A DNA stretch of 64,000 nt from an uncultured Gammaproteobacteria bacterium (GTDB lineage: Bacteria; Patescibacteriota; Microgenomatia; UBA12405), in assembly GCA_964549165.1 (NCBI GenBank), contig CAZJUH010000001.1, positions 863 through 64,862 on the forward strand, given 5' to 3'. The position numbers were made by a program, and so were the translations under genes. This document shows positions 8,499 to 39,614 of this stretch, in pieces. Each line of letters starts with the position of its first letter. Positions within the stretch are counted from its first letter, which is position 1. The notes under the pieces were generated by a model. That model saw only the letters and a list, made by a program, of their open reading frames with translations. It searched no databases and had not been told where the DNA came from.

Positions 8499-8499
8499 T

Positions 8500-8841: not shown

Positions 8842-8853
8842 AATTAAAAAACT

Positions 8854-9177: not shown

Positions 9178-9230
9178 AATAATCCATTTCCCTGTTAAAC
9201 TTTATTAATTTATTAAAAATTTAAAAAAAT

Positions 9231-9602
9231 ATGTCTTCAATCAAAAACAAGCTTCAATTTGCCCTCTTAGCCATTCCCGCCTTTGCCGCAGAGACAATTG
9301 ATCTCGCTCCAAAAGATAATTTTGCCGGTTTAGCTGATTTAAGTTTTAGTGGTATTATTTCCGGAGCCGTCTCCCTAATTCTTTTAGTGGTCGCTCTAGT
9401 TTTCTTTTTTATCCTTATCACAGGCGGTTTAAAATGGGTTATGTCCGGTGGTGACCAAAAAAATGTCGAGGCGGCTCGCAATCAAATCACCAACGCTCTT
9501 ATTGGCCTGGCCATTGTCTTTGCTACTTTCGCCATTATGAAATTAATTGAAACCCTTTTTGGCATCACCATCCTCAGTAATCTTACTATCAAGCCTTTTT
9601 AA
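9231..9602 (+). CDS. TrbC/VirB2-like pilin-family paralog 5 (with cleavable signal peptide)
   Basis: 123 aa. Signal peptide LLAIPAFAAE, then LKWVMSGGDQKNVEAARNQITNALIGLAIVFATF. A rho-independent terminator follows. Confidence 0.5.
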   Translation: MSSIKNKLQFALLAIPAFAAETIDLAPKDNFAGLADLSFSGIISGAVSLILLVVALVFFFILITGGLKWVMSGGDQKNVEAARNQITNALIGLAIVFATFAIMKLIETLFGITILSNLTIKPF

Positions 9603-9625
9603 GAAAATTCGAATTAAATCCCAAA

Positions 9626-9653
9626 CCCCCCGAAATAACATCGGGGGGTTTTT
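9626..9653 (+). terminator. Rho-independent terminator after the fifth pilin paralog
   Basis: Stem CCCCCCGA, loop aataaca, stem TCGGGGGG, followed by TTTTT. Confidence 0.7.
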
Positions 9654-9669
9654 AAGTTATAATTAACTC

Positions 9670-10092
9670 ATGAAATCTATTTTCACTTTTTTTCTTTGTC
9701 TCGCCATAGCTTCTTGCATCGGCGTATCCATTCTGTCTTCTCCTGTTTTTGCCCAAACAACCAAGCCCTGGACTGGTCGCTGTGTCCAGACTTTCAACGT
9801 TAACGGAAAAATTATTGATGATGTTGCCACTATTCAGGGCTTTGAATGTCTTTTTTACAATGTTCTCCAGGTTATTGTCACCATCGCTGGTCTAGCTTTT
9901 CTCTTTATGTTTATCAGCGGTGGCTATAAATATCTCTTTAGCGGTAGTGAACCAAAGGCGGTCGCCGCCGCCTCTTCTGCCATCACCAGTGCTTTTATCG
10001 GTCTCATTGGTGTAATCGCTTCTTGGCTTATTATAAAATTAATTCAGGATTTCACCGGCATCAACGTTACCATATTTAAAATTCCCGGCTAA
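9670..10092 (+). CDS. TrbC/VirB2-like pilin-family paralog 6 (signal peptide, extra Cys-containing N-domain)
   Basis: 140 aa. Signal peptide, then FISGGYKYLFSGSEPKAVAAASSAITSAFIGLIGVIASWLII. Confidence 0.45.
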   Translation: MKSIFTFFLCLAIASCIGVSILSSPVFAQTTKPWTGRCVQTFNVNGKIIDDVATIQGFECLFYNVLQVIVTIAGLAFLFMFISGGYKYLFSGSEPKAVAAASSAITSAFIGLIGVIASWLIIKLIQDFTGINVTIFKIPG

Positions 10093-15737: not shown

Positions 15738-17381
15738 ATGTCCTCCATCGAATCTATCGATCTCCACGTCCGCACCTACCGCTCTGCCCTCAAGAGCAAT
15801 CTCGAAGTAACCATTCACTCTCTCACTGCTTCTTACCTAAAAATCGATTCAATTCTTCACCCTCTTGCCCGTGACCCCACCGCCATCGATCCCTCCGCCA
15901 TCGTCTATTCCCTCCTCCGTCTCCCCAAAATTATCGATCAATGCAAGCTCGTCATCATGGCCCAAAATCCCCAAGTTTTTATCGATTCCGGCTTTCCCGA
16001 TATCACTAAATGGAAAAAAGTCTCCACCACCGCCCGCCGCCGGACACGCTTTTTTGACCCAAAAACCGGCACTTGTGCCTCCTGCATCAGTTCCGTCACC
16101 GACGTTGACGACATCGTCAACCTTCTCATTGCCTATCAAATCGAATGGAACAAATTCCATCAAATCGTCATCGCCACCTACCCCGAATATCCTCTCTTCA
16201 AAAAGGCCCTCGACACCCCTGATTTTTTAAAATTAATTAAAGTTTTACCGGAGGATTGGCAAAATATAAAAACCGCTCTTGGCAAAAATTGGCGCCTTCG
16301 CCTCAAAAGAATCTATCATCGTCCCCAAAATTTTCGCCTCCGTCTTTTGGCCGGTTCCTGGATTGCCTACACCAAAACCACCCAACGTTGGTGGAAAAAC
16401 ATCGCTTTCAACGTCTCCGAAGATTTTCACCTTTCCCATCAGCACATCTATTTTGTCAGCAGCAACTCCCACTCCCTTCTCAATCTTATTACCGGTTTTG
16501 CCCTAAAATCCGAGAAAAAACTCCAAAAAATCGCCCCTAAAAATTGCAACGACCTTTGCCCCTACATCCCGCCCCAGGATCTTCTTTATTACCTCTCTAA
16601 ATTTTTTAACACCGATAAAAAATACCAAAGTGAATGGCAAAAAATCCAGGAACGTTTAGGTATTATTACCGTTCCCTCCGCCAATTATCTCGACATCAAT
16701 ACTCAAATTTTTCCTATCAAATCTTTTTCCAAATCAAAATTTCTCGACCCCCGTCTGAAAATTAGTAAACCTACCAAAATTGCCAAAAGTGACGCCTTAA
16801 TCTTCAATATCGACTACCCTCTCGGTTTTGCCGCTTATCACGTTCTCAGTGGAGTGTTGGAAAACGTCGCTTCCGTCAAAGGTGTCTACATTCTTGGCAA
16901 GGCTGCTGTTCTCAATTCCGAAGTCGGCGACCTTCAAGTTCCCCGTCTCATTTTCGATGAACATTCCAGTAATTCTTACTTTTTTAAAAATTGTTTCAAC
17001 ACCTCTTTCCCTTTTAATAATTCCCAGGGTTCCATTCTTACCAACCAAAAATCAGTCACCGTCTTTGGCACTTTTTTAGAAAATGAAGCCCTCCTAAAAA
17101 AATATTTTCAAAATAACCTCACCGTCATCGAAATGGAAAATGGTCCCTATTTATCTGCCATTTCCGAAGCCACGTACGATCAACAGGCTCCTCGCGGCAC
17201 CATGGTCGATCTAAATTCCGCACCTTTTGATATTGGCATCATCAACTATACCTCCGATACTCCCTATTCCAAGGCAAAAAATCTCGGTGCTGGTTCTCTC
17301 AATCTCGCCGGCGTCGAACCTGTTTATTTAGGCTCACTGGCCATTCTACAACGAATAATAAACTTAGAAGAGGAAAAATAG
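15738..17381 (+). CDS. Hypothetical protein with a C-terminal nucleoside-phosphorylase (PNP/UDP family)-like domain; compositionally atypical
   Basis: 547 aa. The first ~700 nt have visibly higher GC than the surroundings, which produces many spurious overlapping ORFs on both strands. The C-terminal ~200 aa (YPLGFAAYHVLSG...VKGVYILGKAAVLNSEVGDLQVPRLIFDEHS...VTVFGTFLENEALL...IEMENGPYL) resemble the phosphorylase/nucleosidase fold. Confidence 0.4.
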   Translation: MSSIESIDLHVRTYRSALKSNLEVTIHSLTASYLKIDSILHPLARDPTAIDPSAIVYSLLRLPKIIDQCKLVIMAQNPQVFIDSGFPDITKWKKVSTTARRRTRFFDPKTGTCASCISSVTDVDDIVNLLIAYQIEWNKFHQIVIATYPEYPLFKKALDTPDFLKLIKVLPEDWQNIKTALGKNWRLRLKRIYHRPQNFRLRLLAGSWIAYTKTTQRWWKNIAFNVSEDFHLSHQHIYFVSSNSHSLLNLITGFALKSEKKLQKIAPKNCNDLCPYIPPQDLLYYLSKFFNTDKKYQSEWQKIQERLGIITVPSANYLDINTQIFPIKSFSKSKFLDPRLKISKPTKIAKSDALIFNIDYPLGFAAYHVLSGVLENVASVKGVYILGKAAVLNSEVGDLQVPRLIFDEHSSNSYFFKNCFNTSFPFNNSQGSILTNQKSVTVFGTFLENEALLKKYFQNNLTVIEMENGPYLSAISEATYDQQAPRGTMVDLNSAPFDIGIINYTSDTPYSKAKNLGAGSLNLAGVEPVYLGSLAILQRIINLEEEK

Positions 17382-19554: not shown

Positions 19555-22479
19555 TTATTTTCCCATCTCTACCCCCATTTTAATATCCTTCTCCAATTTT
19601 TGATTAAAAAGCAGTTTCCCTCCTACGACGCTCGCCACCGGCTCCACCGCGTTTATTTGCCAATTATTAGGTATAGAAATCAAACTCACCATGTTTGTTT
19701 CTCCGTAGCCACTCTGCTTTTGCACATAATTTAGATAAGAAAAGGTTGTTGTTTTACCCAAATCAATCACAGCGCTATATTTAACTTCAACTTCAATTTT
19801 CTTCCCAATGGGTACCATTACCAAAAAACCCACCTCCTTTTTGCTTCCATTCTGGCTAATTTTTAAATTTTCTCCACTAACTATGTTTTTTCCACTATTG
19901 CCACTCTCACTCCAATTTACTTCCTCCACCCGACTTTCTGCTGGTATGTAGACTCTTAGATAATTCTTATAATCACCCGCCGGCCAGTTGGTACTTTTGG
20001 AAGTGTTTTCGTAAACTATTTTCAGCTTATTTTTGATTGTCTTCTCTCCTATTTCTACCTCTCTTTCAATGTTTCGATACAAAAAATAATTTGCCTTATT
20101 TACCCCCATATTTGCCTCAACAAGATACAAATAATCGGCAAAACAACTAACTTGCTCTGAGCTTGTCGAAGAGCATTTTCCTTCATAAATTGACCCGTCC
20201 CACCCCGCCTCCGCCACTACCCTCGCCGCATTACTTTCATTAAAGCTTATTTGCACCTCGTTTCGATCTAAAAGTTCCACAATTGTCATCAGTAGCTTTT
20301 GCCCCACATTGCCTTCGGCCATTTTTATTTCTTCCATTAATTGTCTACTGACCCCGCCCAGAAAGCTCGCTTTTTGTCCCGAACCAGCAAAAAATTTATT
20401 ATCTGAATAAAACTCAGCCTGTTCATATAAGTTATTTTCGCTTACTTTTTCTTTAAAATCGGGCACAAATATTTCTCCCGTTACGCCGAGTACCGCCTTA
20501 ACCGACGCCAAATTTAAACCAATGACCCCATCCACCTTTCTTCCTGTTTCCTTGTCAAGAAACCACTGGACATCTCTAGAAACAAGGGGAAAACTAGCTT
20601 GCCAATTGGCGTCTCTCATATACCAGCCAGCCTCCCCGAGGTATTTTTTAATTTCTTCGGGTGGTTCCACGTGCCCCCTCAGTTGTCCGTCTGCTTCATA
20701 AATATCGCTAATTTGGAAATTTAAAAACCGTCCACTCTCAAAAGCCAAAATCGCAAAAGAACCAATAAAACCACCCGAGGGTCTAATTTCGTTTTCGTTT
20801 TGTAAAAGCACCATATATTCTCTTCTTTTACCGTCAAGACCAATCATTTCCGGTAGTATTTGGAGTATTTCGTTCATTTTTTCCACTGTTTTTCTTTGAG
20901 TTTCCAGTTTTATCTTTATTTTATTAAGATCTGTTCTAAATCGACTTGGCAGCCAGTCCCATTGTCCCGACAATCTACCTTGCAAAATTCCCATTTTTGA
21001 AATAATCGTTTCCGTTCTTTTTGCCATCTCCGAAAGCTCATTTTCCATTTCAACTTCCCCTTCACCAAAAAGGCCTTTACTAATTTTCTCTCCACTTTTC
21101 ACAAGAGCCAGATTTAACTTTAGCAGATCTATTACTTCGCTCTCAATTCGTAAAAGACTTCCTATTTTTCCAACCTCAAAAATTGCCAAATTCTTTTCGT
21201 TGTTTGTTGCCAGAACTTCTATTTTCTTTTCCGCCTCACTATAATTATTTTCTTCAATGAGACTCTGAATTCTCAAGATATTTTTTGGAATCGTCGCTAA
21301 TTTTACAATATTTACCAGTAGTACGACAAAAATCATCAATAAAACTCCAGCTACCACCCACCCCCACCATTTATTATTCTTTATTGTTTTTTCTTTAGTT
21401 TTTTGATTTTCTTCCTTTTTTACCAGGCGGGTGTCAACTTCGGTTGACATAATAGCCTGGCTTTCCTTTTCCTCCATCTTTCTCTCCGGTATCGGACTCG
21501 TTATAAAATTTTCAAATACAATTTCTTTTTCTTCCTTCGCCTCGCCAAAGTCTTCGGCGAAGGCGGGTTTCTCTTCTTCTTCAATCTCTATCTCAATTTC
21601 TTCTTGTGTTTCCTCTTTAGGTTTTTCCGCCAAAGGCGGATCAGCCTCTGGCTGAAGATTTTTTTCTTCTATTTTTCCCTCTTCCTCCTCTATCTCCACC
21701 TCAAACCTTCTCTCTCTCTTTTCTTCTTCTATTTTTGGCCTAAAATCGCTATTTTTTACAACCGCTTTTTTTCTATTATCCGTATCCACCTTCGCTACAA
21801 AATACTGCACCGCCTCTTTTGCCCCTTGTTTAAAAGGTATTTCAGCCTGCCATCTCAACGCTTGCTGGCTTTCTTTAACCATTTTTTCTTTTTCGGAAGA
21901 CTCTTCATTTTTTGACGAAGCTTGAATTACTTTAGTTCTTGTCATCTTTGCCTCATCAATTAGCACCTCCGCCACTATTTTCGAATTCGTTTCTTTCCCC
22001 CCAATATAAAATATTTTTCCTATTGTTCCAGAGAAAAAACAAGATCTGAGTATTGCCTCAACAAAATCATCAACCATCAGAACCCGATAAAACTCCCCAA
22101 GGCTTGGTAAAACCAAGTTTTTGTTTTTGGCCGCCGTTAAAAAAGCCTGCCCCAAAAAGCCCTCTTCCCCCATTCCCTCCCCATACACATTTTCCCCCAC
22201 TACTATCCTCCAGTTCAATTTAGTTTCGATCAGTTTATTTTTCCACTCCTCAGCCCTATCTTCATTATCAGCTACTAAGACCAATTTTTGATTATTTTCT
22301 AGTCTCATCCACCCACTTTCTCTTCCCTCAAAATCAAAAATATAGGCTGCTTTTTTAGGTATTTCTTCAATATCTCCATCAATTATTTTTATTCCCTGTT
22401 CTTTGAGTTTAGAAACGAGTTTTACCGCTACGTAGTTATCTGTCCCAAAAATAATTGCCACCGAGGTTAAGACTTCCAT
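19555..22479 (-). CDS. Membrane protein: N-terminal cytoplasmic Rossmann-like domain, acidic low-complexity linker, one TM helix, large extracytoplasmic DUF4012-like domain
   Basis: 974 aa. Glu/Lys-rich linker containing the repeat-element-encoded peptides LQPEADPPLAEKPKEE and ESQAIMSTEVDTRLVKKE. TM helix WWGWVVAGVLLMIFVVLLVNIV. Adjacent to Wzx-like and O-antigen-ligase-like genes. Confidence 0.5.
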   Translation of the reverse strand: MEVLTSVAIIFGTDNYVAVKLVSKLKEQGIKIIDGDIEEIPKKAAYIFDFEGRESGWMRLENNQKLVLVADNEDRAEEWKNKLIETKLNWRIVVGENVYGEGMGEEGFLGQAFLTAAKNKNLVLPSLGEFYRVLMVDDFVEAILRSCFFSGTIGKIFYIGGKETNSKIVAEVLIDEAKMTRTKVIQASSKNEESSEKEKMVKESQQALRWQAEIPFKQGAKEAVQYFVAKVDTDNRKKAVVKNSDFRPKIEEEKRERRFEVEIEEEEGKIEEKNLQPEADPPLAEKPKEETQEEIEIEIEEEEKPAFAEDFGEAKEEKEIVFENFITSPIPERKMEEKESQAIMSTEVDTRLVKKEENQKTKEKTIKNNKWWGWVVAGVLLMIFVVLLVNIVKLATIPKNILRIQSLIEENNYSEAEKKIEVLATNNEKNLAIFEVGKIGSLLRIESEVIDLLKLNLALVKSGEKISKGLFGEGEVEMENELSEMAKRTETIISKMGILQGRLSGQWDWLPSRFRTDLNKIKIKLETQRKTVEKMNEILQILPEMIGLDGKRREYMVLLQNENEIRPSGGFIGSFAILAFESGRFLNFQISDIYEADGQLRGHVEPPEEIKKYLGEAGWYMRDANWQASFPLVSRDVQWFLDKETGRKVDGVIGLNLASVKAVLGVTGEIFVPDFKEKVSENNLYEQAEFYSDNKFFAGSGQKASFLGGVSRQLMEEIKMAEGNVGQKLLMTIVELLDRNEVQISFNESNAARVVAEAGWDGSIYEGKCSSTSSEQVSCFADYLYLVEANMGVNKANYFLYRNIEREVEIGEKTIKNKLKIVYENTSKSTNWPAGDYKNYLRVYIPAESRVEEVNWSESGNSGKNIVSGENLKISQNGSKKEVGFLVMVPIGKKIEVEVKYSAVIDLGKTTTFSYLNYVQKQSGYGETNMVSLISIPNNWQINAVEPVASVVGGKLLFNQKLEKDIKMGVEMGK
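21625..21660. repeat. Double-hairpin element encoding PEADPPLAE (copy in the DUF4012-like gene)
   Basis: TTCCGCCAAAGGCGGATCAGCCTCTGGCTGAAGATT has hairpins CCGCCaaaGGCGG and CAGCCtctGGCTG. Other copies: 25297-25333 (intergenic), 35284-35319 (virB4), 59493-59544 (trmH-like); a half copy lies at 7755-7776. Confidence 0.85.
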
Positions 22480-29177: not shown

Positions 29178-30296
29178 ATGAAGCTTTCCCTTTTACAAGA
29201 AAACATCTCTCTCGCTCTCAACCATACTTCTCGTTTTGTCGCTTCCAAAATTCAACTTCCTATCTTAAACCATATTCTTTTTTCCACCGACAAAGGTCGT
29301 CTAAAATTATCTGCCACCAATTTAGAGCTTGGTATTAATTACTGGCTCGGAGCCAAGATTGAGGATGAGGGTTCTTTTTGCCTTCCCGCCAAAGAAATCA
29401 CGGAATTTGTTTCTTATTTACCTACTGGTCGTCTTGATCTTTTCTTAAAAAACAACAATATTCTGACTCTATCTTCAAATAAAACCGAATCAAACTTTGC
29501 CTGTCTACCTCCGGCTGATTTTCCCGAAATTCCCTCTCTTGATCCCAAAACTGCCTTTGAAATTGATTTACCAATATTGACTGAGGCGATTAATCAAATC
29601 GCTTTTGCTGCTGCTTCCGATGATTCCCGTCCTATTTTGACCGCCATTCTTTGTACTTTTTCTTCAAGTGAACTTAGTTTAGTGGCCACCGATGGCTTTA
29701 GATTATCTTTAAAAAATATAAAATTAACGAGTCCTCTCGATCTTTCAACTGGGACCAAAACTCTTTTAATTCCCGCCAAAAGTTTGCTTGAAATCGTCAA
29801 ACTGGCTAAAAATGCTAAAAAAATCAAAATAGGACTCACAAAAGATTCCAATCAGGTAGTTTTCGTCTTAGAGGATTTGGAGCTTGTTTCCCGGCTTATC
29901 GAGGGTGATTATCCTGACTATCATCGAATTATCCCAAAGGAAGCAATAACTAAAATTTATCTAAATCGCGACGAACTCGTTCAGGCCATCAAGCAAAGCT
30001 CTGTTTTTGCTCGTCAATCTGCCAATGTTGTTAAATTAAGTCTTAAAGCCTCTTCAATTGAGCTTTCTGCCAATGCTCCTCAAATTGGTCAAAATAAAGT
30101 TAGTGTTGATGCCCGTATCGAAGGAGAATCCCTAGAAATTGCCTTTAACTACAAATTTATCTCTGATTTTTTGACTATTTGTCAAGGCGAGGAAATTATT
30201 ATTGAGTTAAACGAAGCTCTTTCTCCTGGTCTTTTCCGTGATCAGTCTGACCCCGCCCTCACTCATATTATTATGCCTGTTAGGATTCAAGATTAG
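29178..30296 (+). CDS. dnaN: DNA polymerase III beta sliding clamp
   Basis: 372 aa with the three-domain clamp architecture, directly after dnaA. Confidence 0.9.
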   Translation: MKLSLLQENISLALNHTSRFVASKIQLPILNHILFSTDKGRLKLSATNLELGINYWLGAKIEDEGSFCLPAKEITEFVSYLPTGRLDLFLKNNNILTLSSNKTESNFACLPPADFPEIPSLDPKTAFEIDLPILTEAINQIAFAAASDDSRPILTAILCTFSSSELSLVATDGFRLSLKNIKLTSPLDLSTGTKTLLIPAKSLLEIVKLAKNAKKIKIGLTKDSNQVVFVLEDLELVSRLIEGDYPDYHRIIPKEAITKIYLNRDELVQAIKQSSVFARQSANVVKLSLKASSIELSANAPQIGQNKVSVDARIEGESLEIAFNYKFISDFLTICQGEEIIIELNEALSPGLFRDQSDPALTHIIMPVRIQD

Positions 30297-30398
30297 CCAT
30301 ATTATTATGTTTACCAAGCCGAAGCTTTAGCGCAGGCTGGCCTGTTAGGATTCAAGATTAGTTTTTTTAGGTTTTAGAATTTAGATTTTTTCTGTTTT

Positions 30399-30758
30399 TT
30401 ATTCTTCTTCAAATATCAGCCTTTGACTTTCTGTCGCGATCTTATTTTCTCTCATCCAGTTGTATATTTCTTGTTTAATTATTTTCTCATCCACCTTTTC
30501 ACTTTTCTTAATCAAAAGAGTATTTGGCTCTGTGTAGCGCTCTACAACATAGCCAACTCCCTTATAAGGTAACTTTTCCCATAATGGATACTCAACACTG
30601 ATTTGAGAGGAAATAGTTGGGCTTGGAGAGATAATTTGGAGCACTTCCTTTTGTTCCCACTTTACATTTCTATATTTAAATTTTACTATCCCCATTGCTG
30701 TCGCAATCACCAGCAGTATGATTATTAATCGGTATTTATATATATCTTTAAAATTCAT
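30399..30758 (-). CDS. Small membrane-anchored protein (T4SS-cluster accessory candidate)
   Basis: 119 aa with an N-terminal TM helix (LIIILLVIATAMGIV). Overlaps the upstream gene by 4 nt and is last in the minus-strand operon with virB4. Confidence 0.4.
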   Translation of the reverse strand: MNFKDIYKYRLIIILLVIATAMGIVKFKYRNVKWEQKEVLQIISPSPTISSQISVEYPLWEKLPYKGVGYVVERYTEPNTLLIKKSEKVDEKIIKQEIYNWMRENKIATESQRLIFEEE

Positions 30759-31681
30759 TTATCTGCTTTTAATAATACTGGAATATTAATCGGTTTATTT
30801 TCTTTTGGAGAAAAAGTATTCCCTTCGAGTATAAAATAAGGCTCGACACTTTCTCTTTTGTTATCGTAAATTTGTACTAGTTGTATTTGATTTGCATTTA
30901 CCTTACCAATTTCATCATAAAGATCATTAACCCCCGCCCTGTAATTATTTATCGGACTTTTTATTGCCTCATCTAGTGTCATTATTTGCCAGTAATCATC
31001 AGTTGTTTTAATTTCTGGTTTTAAATAAATCATTATTTTAACTAAATTTTCCTGACCATCAAAATAAGCCTTTATCGCTTCGCCATGAAAAGTAGTCAAT
31101 CTCATTCCGTCAACCAAATAATCGCCACTAATTTCCAAAAACTGAGCCTCGTTTTGAGTTGTTTCAATCAAATATGGCTGATTGTATTTTCTGTAGCTGT
31201 TGTTTGTCCATTCGACTTCCAAAGCTGTTTCTTTATTTAAATCACTGGCAATTTTTCGCAGCTTGTTTTTTAATTCACCAATTTCCCATTTTGTCGTCAC
31301 GGGCACCTTATCAAGATTGCTTGGCATATTTGTATACTGAATATAGTTTAGCTCTTTTACTACATAGCCATTTTGCTTGTTAATGCCAAAATATTTTATT
31401 ATTTCTCCTTCTATTTTTTCATCAATAATCTTTCTTTTTATGGTTATTTTTTTAAATTCTTCCGGATAATTTTGCTTTATATCTGAATTCCAATTTACTG
31501 CCCCAATTTTTTTTAAGGTTTCAGGAAAAGTCGTCTGCTTATTATCTACCCCCAAAGTTGGAGCTATTCCGGGCACTATCGGTGTCTTGGTTGGTTCTTT
31601 TTTGTCTTTAGGCCATATCAACCAAATAAACAATCCTAAAAATATTATTCCTAATATTATTAATTTATTTTTTTTAATCAT
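30755..31681 (-). CDS. Membrane-anchored extracytoplasmic protein (VirB8-like topology; function unknown)
   Basis: 308 aa. N-terminal TM helix (LIILGIIFLGLFIWLIW), then a soluble domain. Lies immediately downstream of the M23 hydrolase gene. Confidence 0.4.
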   Translation of the reverse strand: MIKKNKLIILGIIFLGLFIWLIWPKDKKEPTKTPIVPGIAPTLGVDNKQTTFPETLKKIGAVNWNSDIKQNYPEEFKKITIKRKIIDEKIEGEIIKYFGINKQNGYVVKELNYIQYTNMPSNLDKVPVTTKWEIGELKNKLRKIASDLNKETALEVEWTNNSYRKYNQPYLIETTQNEAQFLEISGDYLVDGMRLTTFHGEAIKAYFDGQENLVKIMIYLKPEIKTTDDYWQIMTLDEAIKSPINNYRAGVNDLYDEIGKVNANQIQLVQIYDNKRESVEPYFILEGNTFSPKENKPINIPVLLKADK

Positions 31682-31694
31682 ATTTTATTTTAGC

Positions 31695-34600
31695 CTATCG
31701 ACATAGGCTATTGAATTCGTCCTGACTAATTCCAAAATAAGGACCTGCAATATCCCAGTCTATGTTTGCTCCTACCACTTCATAATGTAAATGATTTCCG
31801 CTTGAATACCCAGTATTGTCAACGATTCCAATTTGCTGACCGGCTTGTACTACTTCTCCGTCACCAACTCTGTATCCTCCAGCCGGCATGTGGGCATAGC
31901 GGATAAAAAAATCGTCCCCACCATAACTACTGTGAATGTCGATATAAAATCCATATCCATTTCCTTCACCAAGTCTGGCAATACCAGAAAAAGTTGAGAA
32001 AATTGGTGTGCCAAAATCTGCTCCCCAGTCCATTGCCCAAATTCCATTATGAGAATAAGAACCAAAAGGACACTGTGTTCTGGTGCCGGCAACGGGCGCC
32101 CCGCCGGGATTCATTGTTGATGGTCCACCACCTCCACTTGTACTACAAAGATAGGTTTGACCATCGTCTCCTATAATTTCCTTTGTTGGTCCGGTCAGTG
32201 AAAAAGGCGCCCCTGCCTGTTCACAGTTTTGCCCACCCTTTTCCACATAAATATCCTTTGGTAGGGGTACACCCGCAATCCACGTCCAGGTTTCTTTCAT
32301 TCCGTCATTGGGATTATTCAAATATTTTCTTCCAGTATTTCCGCTTTGTGTCTGTCCGGCGTCTGGATCACATTGTCCCGTTAAAAAATTAGTGGCCCAG
32401 GCCAGCCAGTAATCGCCTCCAATTTTTGGTTCATTAATACACGCTGACGCCGGATCCAGTCTTAAAAACACTTTAATTTGAGCATCAAAATTATTTTCAA
32501 TTGAACTATCGTTAATTCCAAAATCCTGAACCTTTCCATTATCATAATTACTTCCGGCGGTCTCATGCATCCAAACCCAAAGAGCGTACAGAGGATTAAT
32601 TCCGGCACAAAGAGACCTGTTGACTACGTCGTTATAACATTCCTCAACATGACTTTTACCAGCCTGCCAATCTTTTACAACCCTAAAATAATTACTCTTA
32701 CTTATTAAACCCGGCACCTCATTTTCTGGCGCATTCATATCACAGTTAATCTCTCCTTCCGGTAATCCTCCCGGACCACTTCCTCTTTTTAGAATACAAC
32801 CGCTCAAATCTTTTGGAGGAACAATCGATGATACCTGTTGGTGCATTAGCATGTTATACAAAAAACTTCCCGCAAAAAAAACAATAAATATTGGTAATAA
32901 AAAAGATCCAAAATTAACTAATCCCAGCAGTGCTGGTATTCCAACTAAAAAAGTTCCAATATCAAAAACAAACTGAGCCACCCCCCCAACAAACTTTCCC
33001 AGTCCCAAATCTTCGGCAACAAATTTTTTGATTTTGTTTAGACTCGTTCCTAAAATTTTTTCTAAAAATTTTTTAGCCGCATCTATTATAGGTTTAGCTA
33101 CTACTATTACCAAAGCCACAACGGCAATTATTTGTCCCACCACCGGTAGGGCTTGAAAAGCAGCTACTACTCCAGCGAGTGCTCCTCCACTTGCTGCGCC
33201 CCCAGCTGCCGTTACCGCACCTTTACCCGAGATAGATTTTAGAATTAATCCCACCCCTTTTACTGTTCCCTCTTTGGCAATTACTGCGGCTGAGTTTTTA
33301 ACAAAAGCTGCTGTTGCTTGACCTCCGATTTTTTCGATTATTTTTAAACCAGCTTTTTGGACTCCTATTTTTGACAATACATTTCCCGGAAAAACACTTA
33401 TCTTTTGCCAAACACCAACCATTTTTTGAGTTCCGTTCATTAATTTCAACATTTCCGGACTATTTTTAAAAATAGTTGCCATTTTTTCCGTCACTCTAAT
33501 TTCTTTTAATTTTGGCAATTTATCACTCCCTATCTTTTCTCGCAGTCTGTTGTATTTTTGAATTAGATTATTAAACTTTTTCGGTGCCATTACCACGTTA
33601 CTAGCCATAAATCTGGCCTCATCTATCGATCTTTCTATTTCTCCGTCACTTTTATTTTGGTTTTCGTTTTTAACAAAATTATATGTATCGCTCCTATTTT
33701 CCTCAGCCATGGCACTAGCTGGATCATTTATAAAGGCATTAACCACCGTGACATATTCTTTAATTAATTTTTCATTTTTTACTCCACTTTTCCTTAACTC
33801 TTCGCCTATTTCCTTTCCAAGTTCCAGTCTTCGGTAGTTTACAATTGCTTTTATATTTTCGTTTTTATAATTATCGGTTGCTTTTTCTGCTTCGGCAACT
33901 ATTACCCGGGCCTCTTTCATGTTAGACAGATCTTCGGGTACCCGAAGACGATCTCCTTCTTTCCAGGCGATTAATATTTCGTTTTTAATTTTTTCTTTAA
34001 TTTCATTATTAATTGGCAACTTTTCTTCAACCAGTTTTTCGTAGGTAGCTTTAGCAACTTCTTCGGCCCTTTCTTTTACTTTAATTTCTGCTCTAATCTC
34101 TTCAACTTTTTGAATTAAATCATCAACCTTTTCCGAATCTTTAATTCTTTTTTTTAGTTCTTTTTTTAATTCTTTTGTTTTATAATCTTGATCATTTTTA
34201 AGACTATTCTCTTCGAAAATTTCAAACAATCTTTCTTTCTCCTTTTGTTCATCCGAGGTTAAAACTTCAACGATTTTCTCTTTTTTAATTTCTTCCACCT
34301 TGTCAATTCGTGTCCGTCCATCTTCTTCAGCCAGTCTATTCATTGCCAGGTCTTCAACTATCTTTGTTTTGGTTTTAAAATTGAGCCTATTGAGTTTATT
34401 GGCATTTCTTAAAGCAATTTCCTTTTGAACCTCAATAAATCGCTTAACATCTTTTTGACCCGTTCTTTGATAAATTTCTTTTTCTATTTTTTCTCTTTCG
34501 TTATTACTTTTAGCTTTTTCATAATCTTCAAGTAGTTCTTTCAAATCCTGCTTGTTCAAAGATTTTGTTTCTAGTTTTTTTTCTCCAATTTCTAGCTCTT

Positions 34601-34811
34601 CTATTTTTAGTTCTTTTATTTCTGGCGGCAAATCCCTTAGGGTTTTAATTGTTTTTTTTAGATTTCCCGGATCAAAGTTACTTAATATCTTAAGTTTTTC
34701 AAAGACACCTCGACAAGACCAAAACAGGTCATGTTCATCGTTTAATTTTTTTTTGCCAAGCCCTTCAAGTGACACAATTAATTCCGTAATATTATTGGGC
34801 GATTGACTCAT
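31695..34811 (-). CDS. T4SS-associated giant cell-wall hydrolase: coiled-coil N-region, TM segment cluster, C-terminal M23/LytM peptidase domain
   Basis: 1038 aa. Long K/E-rich coiled-coil region, a Gly/Ala-rich hydrophobic block (about 3 TM helices), and a Cys-containing central domain. The C-terminus carries M23 signatures (HMPAGGYRVGDGEVVQAGQQIG...GYSSGNHLHYEV). The architecture resembles PrgK/TcpG-type conjugation hydrolases. Confidence 0.7.
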   Translation of the reverse strand: MSQSPNNITELIVSLEGLGKKKLNDEHDLFWSCRGVFEKLKILSNFDPGNLKKTIKTLRDLPPEIKELKIEELEIGEKKLETKSLNKQDLKELLEDYEKAKSNNEREKIEKEIYQRTGQKDVKRFIEVQKEIALRNANKLNRLNFKTKTKIVEDLAMNRLAEEDGRTRIDKVEEIKKEKIVEVLTSDEQKEKERLFEIFEENSLKNDQDYKTKELKKELKKRIKDSEKVDDLIQKVEEIRAEIKVKERAEEVAKATYEKLVEEKLPINNEIKEKIKNEILIAWKEGDRLRVPEDLSNMKEARVIVAEAEKATDNYKNENIKAIVNYRRLELGKEIGEELRKSGVKNEKLIKEYVTVVNAFINDPASAMAEENRSDTYNFVKNENQNKSDGEIERSIDEARFMASNVVMAPKKFNNLIQKYNRLREKIGSDKLPKLKEIRVTEKMATIFKNSPEMLKLMNGTQKMVGVWQKISVFPGNVLSKIGVQKAGLKIIEKIGGQATAAFVKNSAAVIAKEGTVKGVGLILKSISGKGAVTAAGGAASGGALAGVVAAFQALPVVGQIIAVVALVIVVAKPIIDAAKKFLEKILGTSLNKIKKFVAEDLGLGKFVGGVAQFVFDIGTFLVGIPALLGLVNFGSFLLPIFIVFFAGSFLYNMLMHQQVSSIVPPKDLSGCILKRGSGPGGLPEGEINCDMNAPENEVPGLISKSNYFRVVKDWQAGKSHVEECYNDVVNRSLCAGINPLYALWVWMHETAGSNYDNGKVQDFGINDSSIENNFDAQIKVFLRLDPASACINEPKIGGDYWLAWATNFLTGQCDPDAGQTQSGNTGRKYLNNPNDGMKETWTWIAGVPLPKDIYVEKGGQNCEQAGAPFSLTGPTKEIIGDDGQTYLCSTSGGGGPSTMNPGGAPVAGTRTQCPFGSYSHNGIWAMDWGADFGTPIFSTFSGIARLGEGNGYGFYIDIHSSYGGDDFFIRYAHMPAGGYRVGDGEVVQAGQQIGIVDNTGYSSGNHLHYEVVGANIDWDIAGPYFGISQDEFNSLCR

Positions 34812-34825
34812 TCAAAAATTATACC

Positions 34826-37288
34826 TTAAGTCGCATCATCGTTTCCAAATAGCTTGTCGTATGTCATCTTTGCCTCATCTTTTTTTGCTTCTGCTGTCTT
34901 TATTTCTTCTTTGGGCTTTAGGCTTTCTTCTATTTTTGTCGTAAATTCTGCCTTTGTTTTTTTGGCGAGCTGTGGTGGTTGTGGAATCACTGGCTCTTTT
35001 TGTTGGTTAATAAACAGGGGTTTTGTCGGTGCTTCGAATTTTGGCAGGGGCGGAAGTGGGGGCGTCGATTTAAATAATTCTTGATATTTGGGTAAAGATC
35101 CACCGGTATTTTTATCCTCTTCGCTATTGTTTTTTTCACTACTTACCTCCTTAAGCTCTTCTTCTGTTTTCTTATTTTCTTCTTCTTCCATTTGGGTGAC
35201 TCTTTTTAGAAGCGCCTCTTCCGGTGATTCCTCCACCTCAGACTTAAAGAGCAATGTTGGCTTCTGTTCCTCCTCTTTAGGCTTTTCCACCAAAGGCGGA
35301 TCAGCCTCTGGCTGAAGATTTTCTTCCGGCTTTACCTCAATTAAAACTTCTTTTACTGGTTCTGTCACCACCGTTTTCTCTTCCTCTTTTTCTTCTTTTT
35401 TTACCAGGCTGGTATCGACGTCAGTCGATATAATAGCCTGGCTTTCTTTCTTCACCAGTGCTGCCTGTTTTTCGGCAATTTTTTGCCGAAGTATCTCTTC
35501 TGGATTTGAAGTAATTAATTTATGTTCTTCTTCTGAGGCGATTACCTGAATTGCCACGTGATTTTGTCCGGCAAAAAATATTCCCTCTCCTTTATCTGCT
35601 GACAAGAGCAGTTGTTTTTCCCCTTCAGATAGGTAAAACGTTTCTCCAATTAGGTCGATAGCGGCACTGTGTTGTTTGAGCAGTATTTGAATTGAGCTGT
35701 TTGTCACTATTTCTTTTCCATAAGGAGTGTTTAAAAAGTCGTCAACATCTTGGGTGATTGTTGTTACTCCGAGATAATATTTTCGACCTCTTTTAATAAT
35801 TCCCCTGAGAAATGCCGCCGAATCATCATATTGCATCAAATACCAAGCCTCATCCACCACCAAAATTCTCTTTTTAAGTTCTTTTTTCACAATTGTCCAA
35901 ATGTAGTCAAGTATTATGTGCATTGCCACTGGTCGTAAACTTTCTTCAAGGTTGCGAATTCCAAAAACCACAAAGCTATTATTTAAGTTTACGGTTGTTT
36001 TTTGATTAAAAATTCCCGCAAAGGAACCCTTAATATATTTTTCCAGTCTTGCCGCCAGGCTTTTCGCCTTTTCTTCTTCGGCTCCAATCAGGGCTTTGTA
36101 TAAGTCTTCAATTAGAGGCGCTTCTCGGGTCTGGGTCTCGGGATCTGGTGATATTCCCTTGGCCTTATAGGCCTCCATAATAGACCTATCTAAAATTGAT
36201 TCCTCGATAGGATCCATGGCCCCGAGCATTATTTTAAACATTTTATGTAAGGTTAGGATTTTGTCATTTAAGGCGTTTTCCCCCTCTTCTGTTACCAGCG
36301 ACAAATCAAAAGGATTGATTTTTGAAGCTTCTCCATAGCCAAAGGCAATATATTGGCCTCCCACCGATTCGGCTAGACTCTTATATTCATTCTCTGGGTC
36401 AATAACAATAATGTCGGTTCCGAGCATTAGTGACCTCATTGCTTCGAGTTTGATCATATATGATTTACCGGCACCGGCCGAGGCAAAAACCACCGAGTTG
36501 TAGTTTAGCATCGAAAATCTATCAAAAATTACGAGAGATCCGTTATGTTCATTGATTCCAAACATAATTCCCTTATCATCTGATAGGTCCGACGATACAA
36601 AAGGAAAAGTACTGGCGAGGGAGGTTGTATCCATATTTCTGGTAATGTTTAGTCTATCGGAACATATCGGTAAAGTCGTTATAAAACCCTCCTCCATTTG
36701 TAGACTGGCTTTTTTGGAAATAATCATCAGCGCTCCTAGTCCCGATTCCAAGTTTTTGGTTGAAGTATCAAGTTCTTCTTTGGTTTTTGCCGACAAGGTC
36801 AGATATAGGCCAAACTGGAAAAATCTTTCTTCTCCCTTGACAAGGTCTGCTTGCAAGGTCAGGGCATCTTCAAGTTTTGCCTGAGTTGCGGGGTTTACTA
36901 TTTTACCTCTTTGGATATCGGTACTTAGCTCTGCCTCCATTTCGGCAATTTTTCGCCTTAGATCATCAAGAATTTCTTTCCCGTCGGTTGGATAAATAAA
37001 CATCGAAATTTTTAATGACGCATCAAAATTAATTAATGTTGATAACCAATTAAGTCCCACAAATCTTGGATATCCAGCCACAAAACAGGTTCGGTAATAT
37101 TTGTTATCAATTCTGATGTGGTTAAAATCAACTTCAATTGCCGAGGGGGCAATAATGTCTTTAATTGATACCAGTCCCTCCACAAATTGCTTCGCCTCGC
37201 CAACAGTGGGCTTTGCCTCAATCGTAGGGCTGGAAACCGACTTGTCGGTTTTAATAGCCCTATTTTTTATTAAATCTAATATTTTCAT
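34826..37288 (-). CDS. VirB4/TrbE-family type IV secretion ATPase with an added Pro/Glu/Lys-rich C-terminal tail
   Basis: 820 aa. Walker A VVFASAGAGKSYMIKLE, Walker B region RILVVDEAWYLM, and conserved ...GRKYYLGVTTITQDVDDF. The C-terminal ~230 aa is low-complexity and contains the repeat-encoded ESQAIISTDVDTSLVKKE and NLQPEADPPLVEKPKEE. Confidence 0.75.
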   Translation of the reverse strand: MKILDLIKNRAIKTDKSVSSPTIEAKPTVGEAKQFVEGLVSIKDIIAPSAIEVDFNHIRIDNKYYRTCFVAGYPRFVGLNWLSTLINFDASLKISMFIYPTDGKEILDDLRRKIAEMEAELSTDIQRGKIVNPATQAKLEDALTLQADLVKGEERFFQFGLYLTLSAKTKEELDTSTKNLESGLGALMIISKKASLQMEEGFITTLPICSDRLNITRNMDTTSLASTFPFVSSDLSDDKGIMFGINEHNGSLVIFDRFSMLNYNSVVFASAGAGKSYMIKLEAMRSLMLGTDIIVIDPENEYKSLAESVGGQYIAFGYGEASKINPFDLSLVTEEGENALNDKILTLHKMFKIMLGAMDPIEESILDRSIMEAYKAKGISPDPETQTREAPLIEDLYKALIGAEEEKAKSLAARLEKYIKGSFAGIFNQKTTVNLNNSFVVFGIRNLEESLRPVAMHIILDYIWTIVKKELKKRILVVDEAWYLMQYDDSAAFLRGIIKRGRKYYLGVTTITQDVDDFLNTPYGKEIVTNSSIQILLKQHSAAIDLIGETFYLSEGEKQLLLSADKGEGIFFAGQNHVAIQVIASEEEHKLITSNPEEILRQKIAEKQAALVKKESQAIISTDVDTSLVKKEEKEEEKTVVTEPVKEVLIEVKPEENLQPEADPPLVEKPKEEEQKPTLLFKSEVEESPEEALLKRVTQMEEEENKKTEEELKEVSSEKNNSEEDKNTGGSLPKYQELFKSTPPLPPLPKFEAPTKPLFINQQKEPVIPQPPQLAKKTKAEFTTKIEESLKPKEEIKTAEAKKDEAKMTYDKLFGNDDAT
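35402..35442. repeat. 40-bp nested palindromic element encoding SQAIISTDVDTSLV (copy in virB4)
   Basis: ACCAGGCTGGTATCGACGTCAGTCGATATAATAGCCTGGCT: outer arms CCAGGCT/AGCCTGG, inner ATCGAC/GTCGAT. Other copies: 21422-21462, 38429-38467, 38471-38510, 38522-38561. Confidence 0.85.
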
Positions 37289-37338
37289 TTTATTTTTTAA
37301 TTTATTTAGGTTTTAGACTTTAGATTTTAGTCTTTTTT

Positions 37339-38040
37339 TTACTGTTTCCTCGTTACCGCTGCGGCGGTGTAATCAATGTTTTGTAATCTTTGGTTGTTAG
37401 CGAGATCTTCATTGTAAGTTCTGTAAAATAAATCAATTAATTCTTTGGTATTTAAGGCTTTAATTTCCAGTCCCAGTCTCGAAAAAAGTCTGACGATATG
37501 ATCTTCTTTTGGTTTAAGGGCCGCCTTAGCCTTTTCTAAAATATATTCTTTTGAGTATGGCAGTTCTGCCTTCTTTTTAATTGGATTTAACACCGCAAAA
37601 GCTTGTTTTTGGGCATTTTTTATTCCGAGTTCAAGGCTGGAAAAAGGAACCACCACATAAAAGGTTTTCGACAAAACATCATTTCTTTTTACCGTTTCTT
37701 CCACGAACTTTTTGTATGAAGTAATCCTGTCCTTTAATTTTTGATTTACTTGTTTATTTTTTGCCTCTTCCAAATTGTTTAAGTAATTTCCTACGTCTTT
37801 GGTGGTTGAATTAATGACAATTTGAATCGTAAAATTTAACGAATTTAAAATCCCTCCATAGGCAAAGACTAGAGCTCCCTGTTCTCTTTCTGATAATAAA
37901 TCAAAATTTACTGAGGAGACCTGAAGTACCATTGAGGCTGAGCCGTCTTTTAGAAGCACTATTCCATCAACGATATCTTCAATTGGCAAATTGTCTTGAG
38001 TGCTTCCTTTTATGGCATTTTTTAGAGGATCATTTGACAT
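37339..38040 (-). CDS. Hypothetical soluble protein immediately upstream of virB4
   Basis: 233 aa with no TM helix. Co-oriented with virB4 and separated from it by a 50-nt spacer containing a heptad repeat array. Confidence 0.45.
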   Translation of the reverse strand: MSNDPLKNAIKGSTQDNLPIEDIVDGIVLLKDGSASMVLQVSSVNFDLLSEREQGALVFAYGGILNSLNFTIQIVINSTTKDVGNYLNNLEEAKNKQVNQKLKDRITSYKKFVEETVKRNDVLSKTFYVVVPFSSLELGIKNAQKQAFAVLNPIKKKAELPYSKEYILEKAKAALKPKEDHIVRLFSRLGLEIKALNTKELIDLFYRTYNEDLANNQRLQNIDYTAAAVTRKQ

Positions 38041-38067
38041 GCTATTTAATAATAACCTATTTGTCTA

Positions 38068-38982
38068 TTATTTGGCGAGAATTTTTATTGGTTCAATAAT
38101 TTTTCCGGTTAGGTTTATTTCTACCCGGTCAAATTCTAAATTTTCTTTTTCTGTCACTACCAAATATTTCCCATTACTAAGTTGAGTCAAAGTTTTAAAC
38201 TGTCCCAGCTTGTTTGTTTTCAGCACTCGGCTCGGATTGCCATCTTTATCTTGAATTTCAATAATCGCCCCCTCTACTATTTTGTGATTTAGATCGAGAA
38301 CCATTCCTACTACCAGATTGGGCAAATCAGGAATATCTGGCATGGGAATTTCTCCAAATACCACTGTTCCCGTTGCCCCCAGTTTTTCTGTTTTTAATCC
38401 CAAATTAGCCGCCTTCGCCTCTTCCTTTGCCAGGCTGGTATCGACGTCAATCGGTTTTGTACCCTGGTTTACCAGGCTGGTGTCAACTCCTGTTGACATA
38501 ATAGCCTGGCTTTCTTCTTTTACCAGGCCGGTATCGACGTCAGTCGATTTAATAGCCTGGCTCTCTCTCCCGATTGACGGTAAAGAGTTTATAAACTCTT
38601 TGACTTTTTTGTCCTCTTTAATTGGCACCACCATCTCTTCTTCCTCGTCACTTTTTAATTGTTTGCTCAAATCAATTTCCAGCCAGTTTTCCGGACTTTC
38701 TTTTTTATAAGTAAAAATTGTCGGTGAATAAATTGATTTAATAAAAGCCATCAGCCAGGTTTCTAGTGGTCGATCTTGAAAGGGGACAAAGGCGAGGGCG
38801 AGACCTCCAGCCGCAAAGATAAAAATTAACGGCCATTTAATAAAAAAAACGAGCTTACTTGAATTAATTAACAGGGCAATAATCACTCCCCCGGCTGCTT
38901 TCCCAAATTGTTTTAGGGTCATATCTCCCACGAGTTTAAATTCGTAGGAGGTTATTTGTTGTGGAATCGGGTGTTGTTCCAT
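38068..38982 (-). CDS. Membrane protein with N-terminal TM hairpin (VirB3-like topology), three tandem repeat-element-encoded peptide copies, C-terminal beta-sandwich-like domain
   Basis: 304 aa. Two TM helices near the N-terminus. Three copies of ...SQAI(K/M)ST(D/G)VDT(G/S)LV... are each encoded by a 40-bp palindromic element (38429-38561). Confidence 0.45.
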   Translation of the reverse strand: MEQHPIPQQITSYEFKLVGDMTLKQFGKAAGGVIIALLINSSKLVFFIKWPLIFIFAAGGLALAFVPFQDRPLETWLMAFIKSIYSPTIFTYKKESPENWLEIDLSKQLKSDEEEEMVVPIKEDKKVKEFINSLPSIGRESQAIKSTDVDTGLVKEESQAIMSTGVDTSLVNQGTKPIDVDTSLAKEEAKAANLGLKTEKLGATGTVVFGEIPMPDIPDLPNLVVGMVLDLNHKIVEGAIIEIQDKDGNPSRVLKTNKLGQFKTLTQLSNGKYLVVTEKENLEFDRVEINLTGKIIEPIKILAK

Positions 38983-39030: not shown

Positions 39031-39390
39031 TTATATCAATTCCAACCCTTTAATCCTCTCAAAATGTTTTTTGTTTAAAGTCCATAAAACCATTTTGTTT
39101 TCAAGCGCGCTACAAGCAATCAAAAGATCATTATCGGCAATTGGATTATTTTTTAATTTAACCTTAAGTTTCGCATAAAACTTACTTGTTACCATATTTA
39201 TATCAACAACAAAAATATTTTTGCTTTCCAAAAAAATATCAAATTCCTCTAATTTCTTTCCCATATTTTCCAATCCATATGCTAATTCTCCATAAACAAT
39301 TGGATTAATAAAATATTCCATTTCAGAATCTAACCCTATTCTTTTTCTTATTATTTCAATCAATACACAAGAATCAAGCAGTATCTTCAT
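39031..39390 (-). CDS. vapC: PIN-domain ribonuclease toxin VapC
   Basis: 119 aa. PIN acidic residues (ILLDSCVLIE...D...DLLIA...). Overlaps the upstream antitoxin gene by 1 nt. Confidence 0.65.
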   Translation of the reverse strand: MKILLDSCVLIEIIRKRIGLDSEMEYFINPIVYGELAYGLENMGKKLEEFDIFLESKNIFVVDINMVTSKFYAKLKVKLKNNPIADNDLLIACSALENKMVLWTLNKKHFERIKGLELI

Positions 39391-39614
39391 TAGAAATTAA
39401 ATTTAAACGAATCTCTAAATTCCTTCATTCCTTTTTCCAACTTCTCGAATTCGCTAGCCGATAAATTCATTTCAAAATCATTGTAAATTGGAGTTACATA
39501 AACTGCCGGTCTTCCAGCTCTTTTTACTAATATTTTCTTTTTGGTAGAGATTACTCTGTTAATCATTTCTCCAAAATTATTTTTAGCATAAGTTGCTGTT
39601 ACTGTTGTCATCAT
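39390..39614 (-). CDS. Phd/YefM-type antitoxin (VapB partner)
   Basis: 74 aa. The N-terminus (VTATYAKNNFGEMINRV) is typical of Phd/YefM antitoxins. Operon partner of the PIN toxin. Confidence 0.6.
   Translation of the reverse strand: MMTTVTATYAKNNFGEMINRVISTKKKILVKRAGRPAVYVTPIYNDFEMNLSASEFEKLEKGMKEFRDSFKFNF

Follow-up and report, generated by a model that had tools for sequence, protein, structure and literature searches.

Type IV secretion systems (T4SSs) of the Patescibacteria, described in 2023–2025, are regarded as the central machine through which a vast and mostly uncultivated bacterial radiation interacts with its hosts, so a well-dissected example is of some value. A survey of 3035 genomes characterised them as MPF-FATA-derived systems with TrsD, PrgI, VirB2 arrays and proximity to dnaA (PMC12102498). 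In Southlakia epibionticum the T4SS and its pilins are essential for epibiotic growth (PMC10633639), no coupling protein or relaxase is recognisable in the homologous cluster, and reviews have proposed either effector export or uptake of host molecules for the patescibacterial T4SS. Here we analysed a 64-kb stretch of DNA (contig CAZJUH010000001.1 of assembly GCA_964549165.1, positions 863 to 64,862), called the window below, to which the analysis of this genome was confined. The host of the locus is a Shapirobacteria-like member of the Microgenomatia, and the subject is a six-gene minus-strand operon (30399–38982) built around a gene for the ATPase VirB4. With a probability of roughly 0.8, we take the locus to be a module of a chromosomal patescibacterial T4SS; the operon is the inner-membrane and energising half of a non-conjugative T4SS that comes from Gram-positive MPF-FATA conjugation machinery.

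With the S. epibionticum cluster (SEML1_0006–0019) the locus shares a monoderm, MPF-FATA-type VirB4 beside PrgI/VirB3 and TrsD, six divergent VirB2-like paralogues in an array, a position beside dnaA/dnaN with no relaxase nearby, and peptidase and lysozyme-type genes directly after virB4 (PMC12102498). It differs in that the block of pilins and VirB6 candidate is set apart by an origin-spanning inversion, VirB4 carries a tail of ~220 amino acids (aa), the hydrolase takes the form of a single giant protein, ~530 aa of it cytoplasmic, and the small anchored proteins are clade-specific. The Prg/Pcf system of the Enterococcus faecalis plasmid pCF10 (PrgI, PrgJ, PrgK, PrgL, PrgH) also has a PrgI-family VirB3 and a VirB4-type ATPase, and its PrgK, a hydrolase of several domains anchored in the membrane, combines an intracellular part with LytM (M23-type) and glycosidase domains (PMC12857230). 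pCF10, however, is a conjugative plasmid with a relaxase, a coupling protein and no pilins, PrgK has a CHAP domain in addition, and for the proteins modelled here Foldseek returned neither a match of the hydrolase mid domain to the PrgK muramidase nor a PrgL/VirB8 fold. The order of a TrsD-like protein before VirB4 is shared with the Trs system of pGO1 (TrsC, TrsD, TrsE) and with the CD1110-family VirB4 of Clostridioides conjugative transposons, whose model cut-off is passed here; in the CD1110 model, however, the TrsD-like segment lies within one polypeptide, whereas it is a separate gene here and re-fused in some Amesbacteria loci. A VirB4 operon with PrgI and the second gene, a peptidase gene next to virB4, a separate pilin array and proximity to the origin are already known from Patescibacteria (PMC12102498) or are usual in Gram-positive T4SSs (as with PrgK). 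What is new is incremental, namely the reading of a split VirB4 with fused forms, a three-part, domain-swapping hydrolase, a VirB6 candidate family, a clade-specific tail with conserved motifs, the inversion and a hairpin element, and these additions leave the picture of what a patescibacterial T4SS is unchanged.

All six open reading frames (ORFs) lie on the minus strand, with intergenic gaps of 27, 50, 14, 13 and −4 nt that give an operon-like packing. In order, they encode a PrgI/VirB3-like protein of 304 aa (38068–38982; identified by Pfam PrgI, topology and orthologue alignment), a TrsD-like protein of 233 aa (37339–38040; NCBIfam, Pfam matches of orthologues, fusions), VirB4 of 820 aa (34826–37288), a giant membrane-anchored cell-wall hydrolase of 1038 aa (31695–34811; Pfam M23, transmembrane (TM) segments), and two bitopic proteins of 308 aa (30755–31681; TM segment) and 119 aa (30399–30758), the start of the last gene overlapping the stop of the one before it by 4 nt. 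An earlier annotation made from the DNA alone (the sequence-only reading) had proposed a six-gene operon of a VirB4-centred T4SS, and both proposals hold, the ATPase scoring above the cut-off of a VirB4 model (387 bits against 325 for conju_CD1110) and pilin partners being found by profile. For comparison we used 80 loci from other Microgenomatia species, fetched with VirB4, in which gene order was judged where the contig was long enough.

The VirB4 core comprises residues 1–598 (35495–37288, minus strand; NCBIfam, Pfam, Walker motifs). The protein matches positions 180–734 of the NCBIfam model conju_CD1110 at 387.4 bits against a cut-off of 325, and this match, together with the TrsD pattern described below, identifies the 820-aa protein as a T4SS ATPase. 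It also matches P-loop_TraG of Pfam (99.7 bits against a cut-off of 25.8, E 1.9e-28). The best-scoring VirB4 models are those of MPF-FATA families, a provisional placement by model score. Walker A (ASAGAGKS, residues 269–276, 36461–36484) and Walker B (ILVVDE, residues 475–480, 35849–35866), which had been called intact, are present and conserved: across 120 homologues, column conservation is 0.8–0.97 in the core and 0.91–0.95 at the Walker motifs. Among the 120 best homologues every one with a named source belongs to the candidate phyla radiation, except one metagenome-assembled genome labelled Methanoperedens; apart from that genome, the named close homologues come from Shapirobacteria, Woesebacteria or Patescibacteria. 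As a separate observation, an insertion of ~530–565 aa sits exactly at the VirB4 Walker A motif (GAGKS) in five loci (L074, L075, L077, L078 and L080), with a '..VYDL.V.N..F.A..G' stretch near its C-terminal junction that resembles intein end blocks; this insertion in VirB4 of Amesbacteria, Woesebacteria and Collierbacteria is probably an intein.

The 233-aa second gene is present as the sequence-only reading had it, though it is not the anonymous protein described there. It is TrsD-like (NCBIfam TrsD, E 9e-9) and, by its profile matches, a stand-alone homologue of the module at the extreme N-terminus of MPF-FATA VirB4, thus a detached part of its neighbour. The protein matches positions 2–123 of conju_CD1110, upstream of the part matched by VirB4 itself, and positions 99–233 of VirB4_plasma, and the VirB4 model of a Mycoplasma integrative and conjugative element (ICE) gives the same consecutive pattern of TrsD and then VirB4. 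In some Amesbacteria loci (L025, L036 and L042) the two are a single ORF of 814–834 aa. Because TrsD and VirB4 fall on non-overlapping, consecutive parts of two VirB4 models and are fused in these three loci, we read the pair as a split VirB4. Nine of 29 TrsD-like orthologues match Pfam TraC_F_IV, the TraC N-terminal family (best E 2e-5), and it is these orthologue matches and the NCBIfam matches that establish the relationship to VirB4; a local hhalign comparison of the TrsD family with the VirB4 N-terminus gave a probability of 0.4%, and a PDB profile search with TrsD gave no match. Other fusions were also seen, a PrgI-TrsD ORF of 611 aa in L069 and an apparent PrgI-TrsD-VirB4 ORF of 1584 aa in L077 (8648–13402). 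The fused ORFs of all five loci may be sequencing or assembly errors; the published survey records no VirB3-VirB4 fusions (PMC12102498).

The 304-aa protein scores just above the Pfam PrgI cut-off (28.8 bits against 27), PrgI being the VirB3 family of Gram-positive systems. On the minus strand, its PrgI domain (~38719–38970) is followed by a hypervariable K/E-rich linker (~38368–38685) and a conserved C-terminal domain (~38071–38367), and an alignment of 69 full-length orthologues shows the same division, with the N-terminal PrgI domain and the ~100-aa C-terminal domain conserved and the linker hypervariable. Two adjacent hydrophobic segments at residues 30–62 correspond to the N-terminal TM hairpin noted from the sequence, and three tandem copies of an SQAI..VDTSLV unit, likewise noted, lie in the linker at 38419–38569. 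A weak match of the C-terminal domain to CarboxypepD_reg (residues 224–282, E 1.4e-4, below cut-off) is the basis on which that domain may be regarded as a putative beta-sandwich.

The 1038-aa protein, also read from the minus strand, is composed of a K/E-rich cytoplasmic N-terminal part (33195–34811), a TM cluster (residues 540–657, 32841–33194), a Cys-rich and probably lysozyme-like mid domain (32097–32831) and an M23 endopeptidase domain (31773–32036). The coiled-coil character attributed to it earlier is putative, its basis being composition. The M23 domain with its HxH, also proposed earlier, is borne out by Pfam Peptidase_M23 (residues 926–1013, E 1.4e-13) and by HLH at 1007–1009, which is conserved, as is D928. 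The extracellular part contains ten cysteines and the N-terminal part a single one. For the mid domain, sequence searches of Pfam and PDB gave no match. Foldseek with its AF2 model (pLDDT 73) placed GH73 glucosaminidase, SltB1 and Slt35 at the top (E 0.06–0.6), with only weak lysozyme-type matches among viral structures, and the invariant E750 lies within an 'ES ... DFGI ... ATNxLxG' pattern whose 'ES / DFGI / ATN-x-L-x-G' spacing resembles that of SLT motifs. From the model and this pattern, the mid domain is probably a lysozyme-type glycosidase. The membrane anchor, the extracellular M23 domain and the position directly 3′ of virB4 are features of a VirB1-type hydrolase.

Only 46 homologues of the 1038-aa protein were found, all keeping the N-terminal part, TM cluster and Cys-rich mid domain, and in these the last domain is M23, C39_2 or CHAP. 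A profile of the N-terminal part detects Shapirobacteria-type relatives only. The wider family was therefore linked by architecture, position and single-linkage phmmer, the last of which may be inflated by the K/E-rich composition. In 24 of 25 inspected loci virB4 is followed by a protein of 780–2012 aa with a long TM-free N-terminal part, a TM cluster and a C-terminal part, with one to three small anchored proteins encoded after it. An M23, CHAP, amidase or C39 domain is present in about 18 of these 24 large proteins. The M23 enzyme had been singled out as unusual, a view that does not survive these counts or the LytM domain contained in Gram-positive T4SS hydrolases such as PrgK (PMC12857230). 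The Microgenomatia gene after virB4 is thus almost always a three-part gene with a swappable hydrolase domain, supplying a VirB1 function that profile surveys rarely found there.

A single hydrophobic anchor lies at the N-terminus of both the 308-aa and the 119-aa protein, in keeping with their earlier description as TM-anchored. The 308-aa protein continues with an extracytoplasmic alpha/beta region and sits at the position of a VirB8/TcpC-like gene; its AF2 model (pLDDT 60) has YycI as the best Foldseek match (E 7e-4). An assignment as VirB8 found no support: Foldseek with this low-confidence model returned no VirB8, TcpC or PrgL match. Both families are small and clade-restricted, with only 22 homologues of the 308-aa protein and with 119-aa homologues at the same position in seven loci.

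On the plus strand at 7839–10092 lie six tandem genes for VirB2-like T4SS pilins (PF18895, topology), which form the separate pilin block of the sequence-only reading. Five of the six exceed the gathering score of PF18895 (T4SS_pilin), and each protein has two hydrophobic helices. They are followed by a 481-aa secreted Cys-rich protein (10096–11541, plus strand) with a signal-like N-terminus and nine cysteines, for which no Pfam or NCBIfam match and no tblastn match in the 80 related loci was found. Its lack of homologues in those loci marks it as fast-evolving and as a candidate pilus-associated or host-contact protein; that it is a pilus-associated adhesin is a guess. The next gene encodes a polytopic protein of 523 aa (u523; 11561–13132, plus strand) with a signal peptide and ~6 TM segments, recognised by topology and synteny. 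The protein itself has no Pfam, NCBIfam or PDB match; its homologues lie between the pilins and PrgI in 29 loci, its family comprises 3099 representative clusters, and it is the best candidate for a VirB6-type channel subunit. The family would thus provide a widespread VirB6 candidate in a class where VirB6 is reported scarce. An 828-aa cytoplasmic protein (u828; 13170–15656, minus strand) adjoins the block, its membership in the T4SS being uncertain. It has no TM segment, no P-loop and no family match, and homologues between u523 and PrgI, on the opposite strand, were seen only in L019 and L023.

In the window the pilin-side block and the operon lie 20 kb apart, with, between them, DUF6909, ftsH, a DUF4012 gene, two polysaccharide genes, jag, yidC, rnpA, dnaA and dnaN, and the end of dnaN lies 102 nt from the 119-aa gene, the last of the operon. 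GC skew changes sign nowhere in the window, so the placement of oriC relies on DnaA boxes, the only perfect ones in the window being those that flank dnaA. The order PrgI-TrsD-VirB4-large hydrolase-small anchored proteins-dnaN-dnaA is kept in the large majority of the 80 loci, PrgI and TrsD adjoining virB4 in more than 70 of them, and 0–7.7 kb beyond PrgI-TrsD-VirB4 come dnaN and dnaA, encoded on the opposite strand, and then rnpA, yidC and jag. Thirteen related loci, L044 among them, have pilin genes in the 10-kb flank upstream of PrgI. In Woesebacteria-type loci, L044 (a complete genome) included, PrgI is immediately preceded by the pilin array and the 523-aa homologue, whereas the window and Shapirobacteria-type loci have a 5′-3′ exonuclease and a glycosyltransferase there instead. 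Inverting ~15.7–39.7 kb, from DUF6909 to a Phd/PIN pair, interconverts the two orders, so one inversion explains the split: a single origin-spanning event, common to the Shapirobacteria-type clade, separated the pilin block from the operon. No inverted repeats were found at the two inversion junctions. The sequence-only reading had offered an ancient chromosomal system or a split by rearrangement at the origin as alternatives. Both find support, the former in the recurrence of the order next to dnaN/dnaA in most of the 80 loci and in the published survey (PMC12102498), the latter in the Woesebacteria-type order pilins-u523-(u828)-PrgI, from which the one inversion leads to the order found here.

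Other explanations of the locus fare less well. Were the 820-aa protein a non-T4SS ATPase of the HerA/FtsK type and the operon no secretion system, the weak Pfam match to DUF87, the HerA central domain (E 6.5e-7), would be accounted for; this is hardly credible given that VirB4-specific models score far higher, one of them above its curated cut-off, and that PrgI, TrsD and VirB2 partners are present. The locus might instead be the transfer apparatus, or a remnant, of an integrated conjugative element that moves DNA to other cells, as its closest profile families are conjugation ATPases (CD1110, Mbov_0397 ICE, TraC) and as PrgI in pCF10 and TrsD in pGO1 are conjugation proteins (PMC12102498). 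Yet no relaxase, coupling protein or integrase was detected among the scanned window ORFs of at least 100 aa, nor any repeat-bounded island in the 64 kb among the ORFs scanned, and the GC content of the locus is that of its surroundings. The operon also occupies the same site between the 5′-3′ exonuclease gene and dnaN/dnaA in many species at 53–86% VirB4 identity, and relaxases occur in only 103 of the 3035 surveyed genomes, rarely near virB4 (PMC12102498). A conjugative element is accordingly very improbable.

The direction of transport enters with another alternative, that the machine is mainly an importer, like archaeal Ced or Helicobacter ComB, taking up host DNA, RNA or other macromolecules via the pilus. 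VirB4 matches CedB, though below threshold (E 3.4e-16), Patescibacteria lack nucleotide synthesis, uptake is raised as a possibility in a FEMS review, and a 2026 preprint describes host-RNA feeding and tubular interface structures in a cultivated relative (10.64898/2026.06.21.733656). The CedB score, however, is 59 bits against a cut-off of 700, transport direction is unreadable from sequence, and loss of comEC in S. epibionticum abolished competence and left viability intact, so the essential role must be something other than taking up DNA by transformation. We regard a predominantly importing machine as possible, if rather unlikely.

Several points weigh against our own reading of the locus as a patescibacterial T4SS module, or against parts of it. 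The TrsD score is 35 bits against an NCBIfam curated cut-off of 200; the first zinc-ligand His of the M23 domain is displaced (H921-x6-D928, not HxxxD); the glycosidase reading of the mid domain combines weak Foldseek matches with a motif likeness. The low-confidence model of the 308-aa protein resembles YycI rather than VirB8, which makes the VirB8 assignment weak, and a weak TrbL/VirB6 match was obtained for only one of 56 members of the 523-aa family (E 0.0019). Other parts of the genome may contain a gene for a coupling protein. We know of no experiment on any Microgenomatia T4SS, and the function proposed here is extrapolated, by analogy, from one Saccharibacteria species.

With the locus read as a T4SS module, a mechanism can be proposed by extension from characterised T4SSs and from S. 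epibionticum Tn-seq, in which PrgI and TrsD would dock VirB4 hexamers on the membrane. VirB4 would then drive the extraction of pilins from the membrane and the assembly of a pilus or channel through a polytopic subunit, the leading candidate for this being the 523-aa protein. Local opening of the cell's own peptidoglycan would fall to the giant hydrolase with its probable glycosidase and its peptidase, and the small anchored proteins may scaffold the wall-spanning part. The resulting pilus is predicted to link the epibiont to a host cell for protein export or uptake of host macromolecules, and not for conjugation. Less certain than the identity of the locus are what each accessory protein does, which way transport runs and what the VirB4 tail is for.

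The VirB4 tail (residues 599–820, 34826–35494, minus strand; delimited by composition and conservation profile) is 222 aa long and contains 19% E, 16% K and 9.5% P. In the 120 close homologues its median length is ~240 aa; residues 605–675 are hypervariable and are followed by the conserved islands FKxEVEESPEEAL and LPKYxELF and a terminal MTYDKLFG. The tail is found in Shapirobacteria-type orthologues and is short or absent in other Microgenomatia. More distant Microgenomatia VirB4 proteins are ~600–675 aa long and lack the tail motifs, so the tail is a clade-specific gain. The earlier description of it as a repeat-bearing acquisition of this VirB4 is correct as to the tail and its repeats and has to be widened as to the gain, which belongs to the Shapirobacteria-type clade and is limited to it. 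A further suggestion, that the tail reaches across a periplasm, has to be given up. VirB4 has no signal peptide and no TM segment, so the tail must be cytoplasmic, as is the VirB4 C-terminus in characterised T4SSs, and Patescibacteria are monoderm. The tail is most probably a disordered cytoplasmic arm with conserved short motifs that docks a partner or substrate. The paper on the patescibacterial T4SS makes no mention of a VirB4 tail of ~220 aa with conserved motifs (PMC12102498).

The SQAI..VDTSLV units correspond, at the DNA level, to a 38-nt two-tier hairpin with an outer stem of 7–8 bp, an inner stem of 7 bp and a 4-nt loop. Six in-frame copies, of which one is degenerate and the others intact, occur in three genes of the window, on the minus strand. 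Three are tandem in the PrgI-like linker (intact at 38472–38509 and 38523–38560, degenerate at ~38430–38460), where the repeat forms units of 42–51 nt. One lies in the VirB4 tail (35404–35441, encoding SQAIISTDVDTSLV; DNA fold z −6.4), one in the variable N-terminus of VirB4 (37225–37262, encoding RAIKTDKSVSSP; z −5.5), with other stems and the same architecture, and one in a 974-aa DUF4012 protein, shortly before the TM segment on its N-terminal side (21423–21460; z −4.7). All copies fold alike (z-scores −3.4 to −6.4), and their inner stems co-vary. VirB4 orthologues of 82–86% identity lack the unit at the tail site, and the closest PrgI-like orthologue (L001, 83%) has a linker without it. 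Close relatives carry other units, such as E(E/N)SLKPKEE, again common to the PrgI-like linker and the VirB4 tail. A widespread mobile element was ruled out by the absence of the element from the 80 related loci and by its single metagenome match. Hairpin density showed no clear difference between tails (1.7/kb) and cores (1.1/kb).

We read the units as a lineage-restricted palindromic in-frame DNA element that is tolerated in disordered K/E-rich segments. Short in-frame palindromes that add peptide, with dyad symmetry and patchy distribution, are known from Rickettsia palindromic elements (RPEs) and PARCEL repeats (PMC2996958). The unit here differs in being much shorter (38-nt core, 51–58 nt with flanks) and in having only six copies in the window and being restricted to one lineage. 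Tentatively, and short of an even chance, RPE-like selfish mini-elements (38-nt core, co-varying stems, possible short target duplications) may be colonising the VirB4 tail and PrgI linker. If so, they would make the cytoplasmic arms of the secretion machine diversify quickly and in concert, sister genomes differing in the unit families that they carry. SQAI..VDTSLV and the units of relatives could also be peptide motifs selected for binding a common partner, with no element at the DNA level, in which case one would expect what is seen in that each genome shares one unit type between both T4SS proteins and that all copies retain the reading frame and the peptide. This seems unlikely to us. One copy lies in the unrelated DUF4012 protein, one two-tier hairpin fold, with co-varying stems, is common to all copies, and the VirB4 N-terminal copy keeps the architecture despite different stems and peptide. 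The unit is, moreover, missing at the same sites in the 82–86% identical VirB4 orthologues and in the L001 PrgI-like linker, and is nearly absent from public data.

Elsewhere in the window, an Rfam search found nothing, and promoter and terminator scans stayed at chance level except for one promoter-like site (11/12 matches) 5′ of the Phd/PIN pair. In this pair, which is toxin-antitoxin-like, a 74-aa Phd/YefM-like ORF overlaps a PIN-domain gene by 1 nt (39031–39614, minus strand); the pair lies directly 5′ of the T4SS operon, at the inversion junction, the promoter-like site, the best of the region, being at 39648–39620. At the other junction lies the DUF6909 gene (15738–17381, plus strand), whose protein has a full-length match to that family (E 8e-153). 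A perfect 22-nt direct repeat, GCCTGTTAGGATTCAAGATTAG, occurs at 30275–30296 and 30340–30361, one copy forming the 3′ end of dnaN and the other falling within the 102 nt that separate dnaN from the convergent 119-aa gene. An AT-rich direct repeat of 43 nt (81% identity) with TTTAGA/TTTAGAC units is found at 30358–30400, just past the operon 3′ end, and at 37297–37339, in the TrsD-VirB4 spacer, and heptamer repeats of the ATTGTAG/ATTGAAG type recur elsewhere in the window, for example at 7716, 23984, 24983 and 25216. Three ATP-grasp proteins cluster with a 7TM_transglut membrane protein at 3235–7692 (minus strand), two of the trio being RimK-like and one a sugar-transfer-type protein fused to an aspartyl-protease-like domain, and this cluster adjoins dockerin/BNR and cohesin-like surface proteins at 29–3225.

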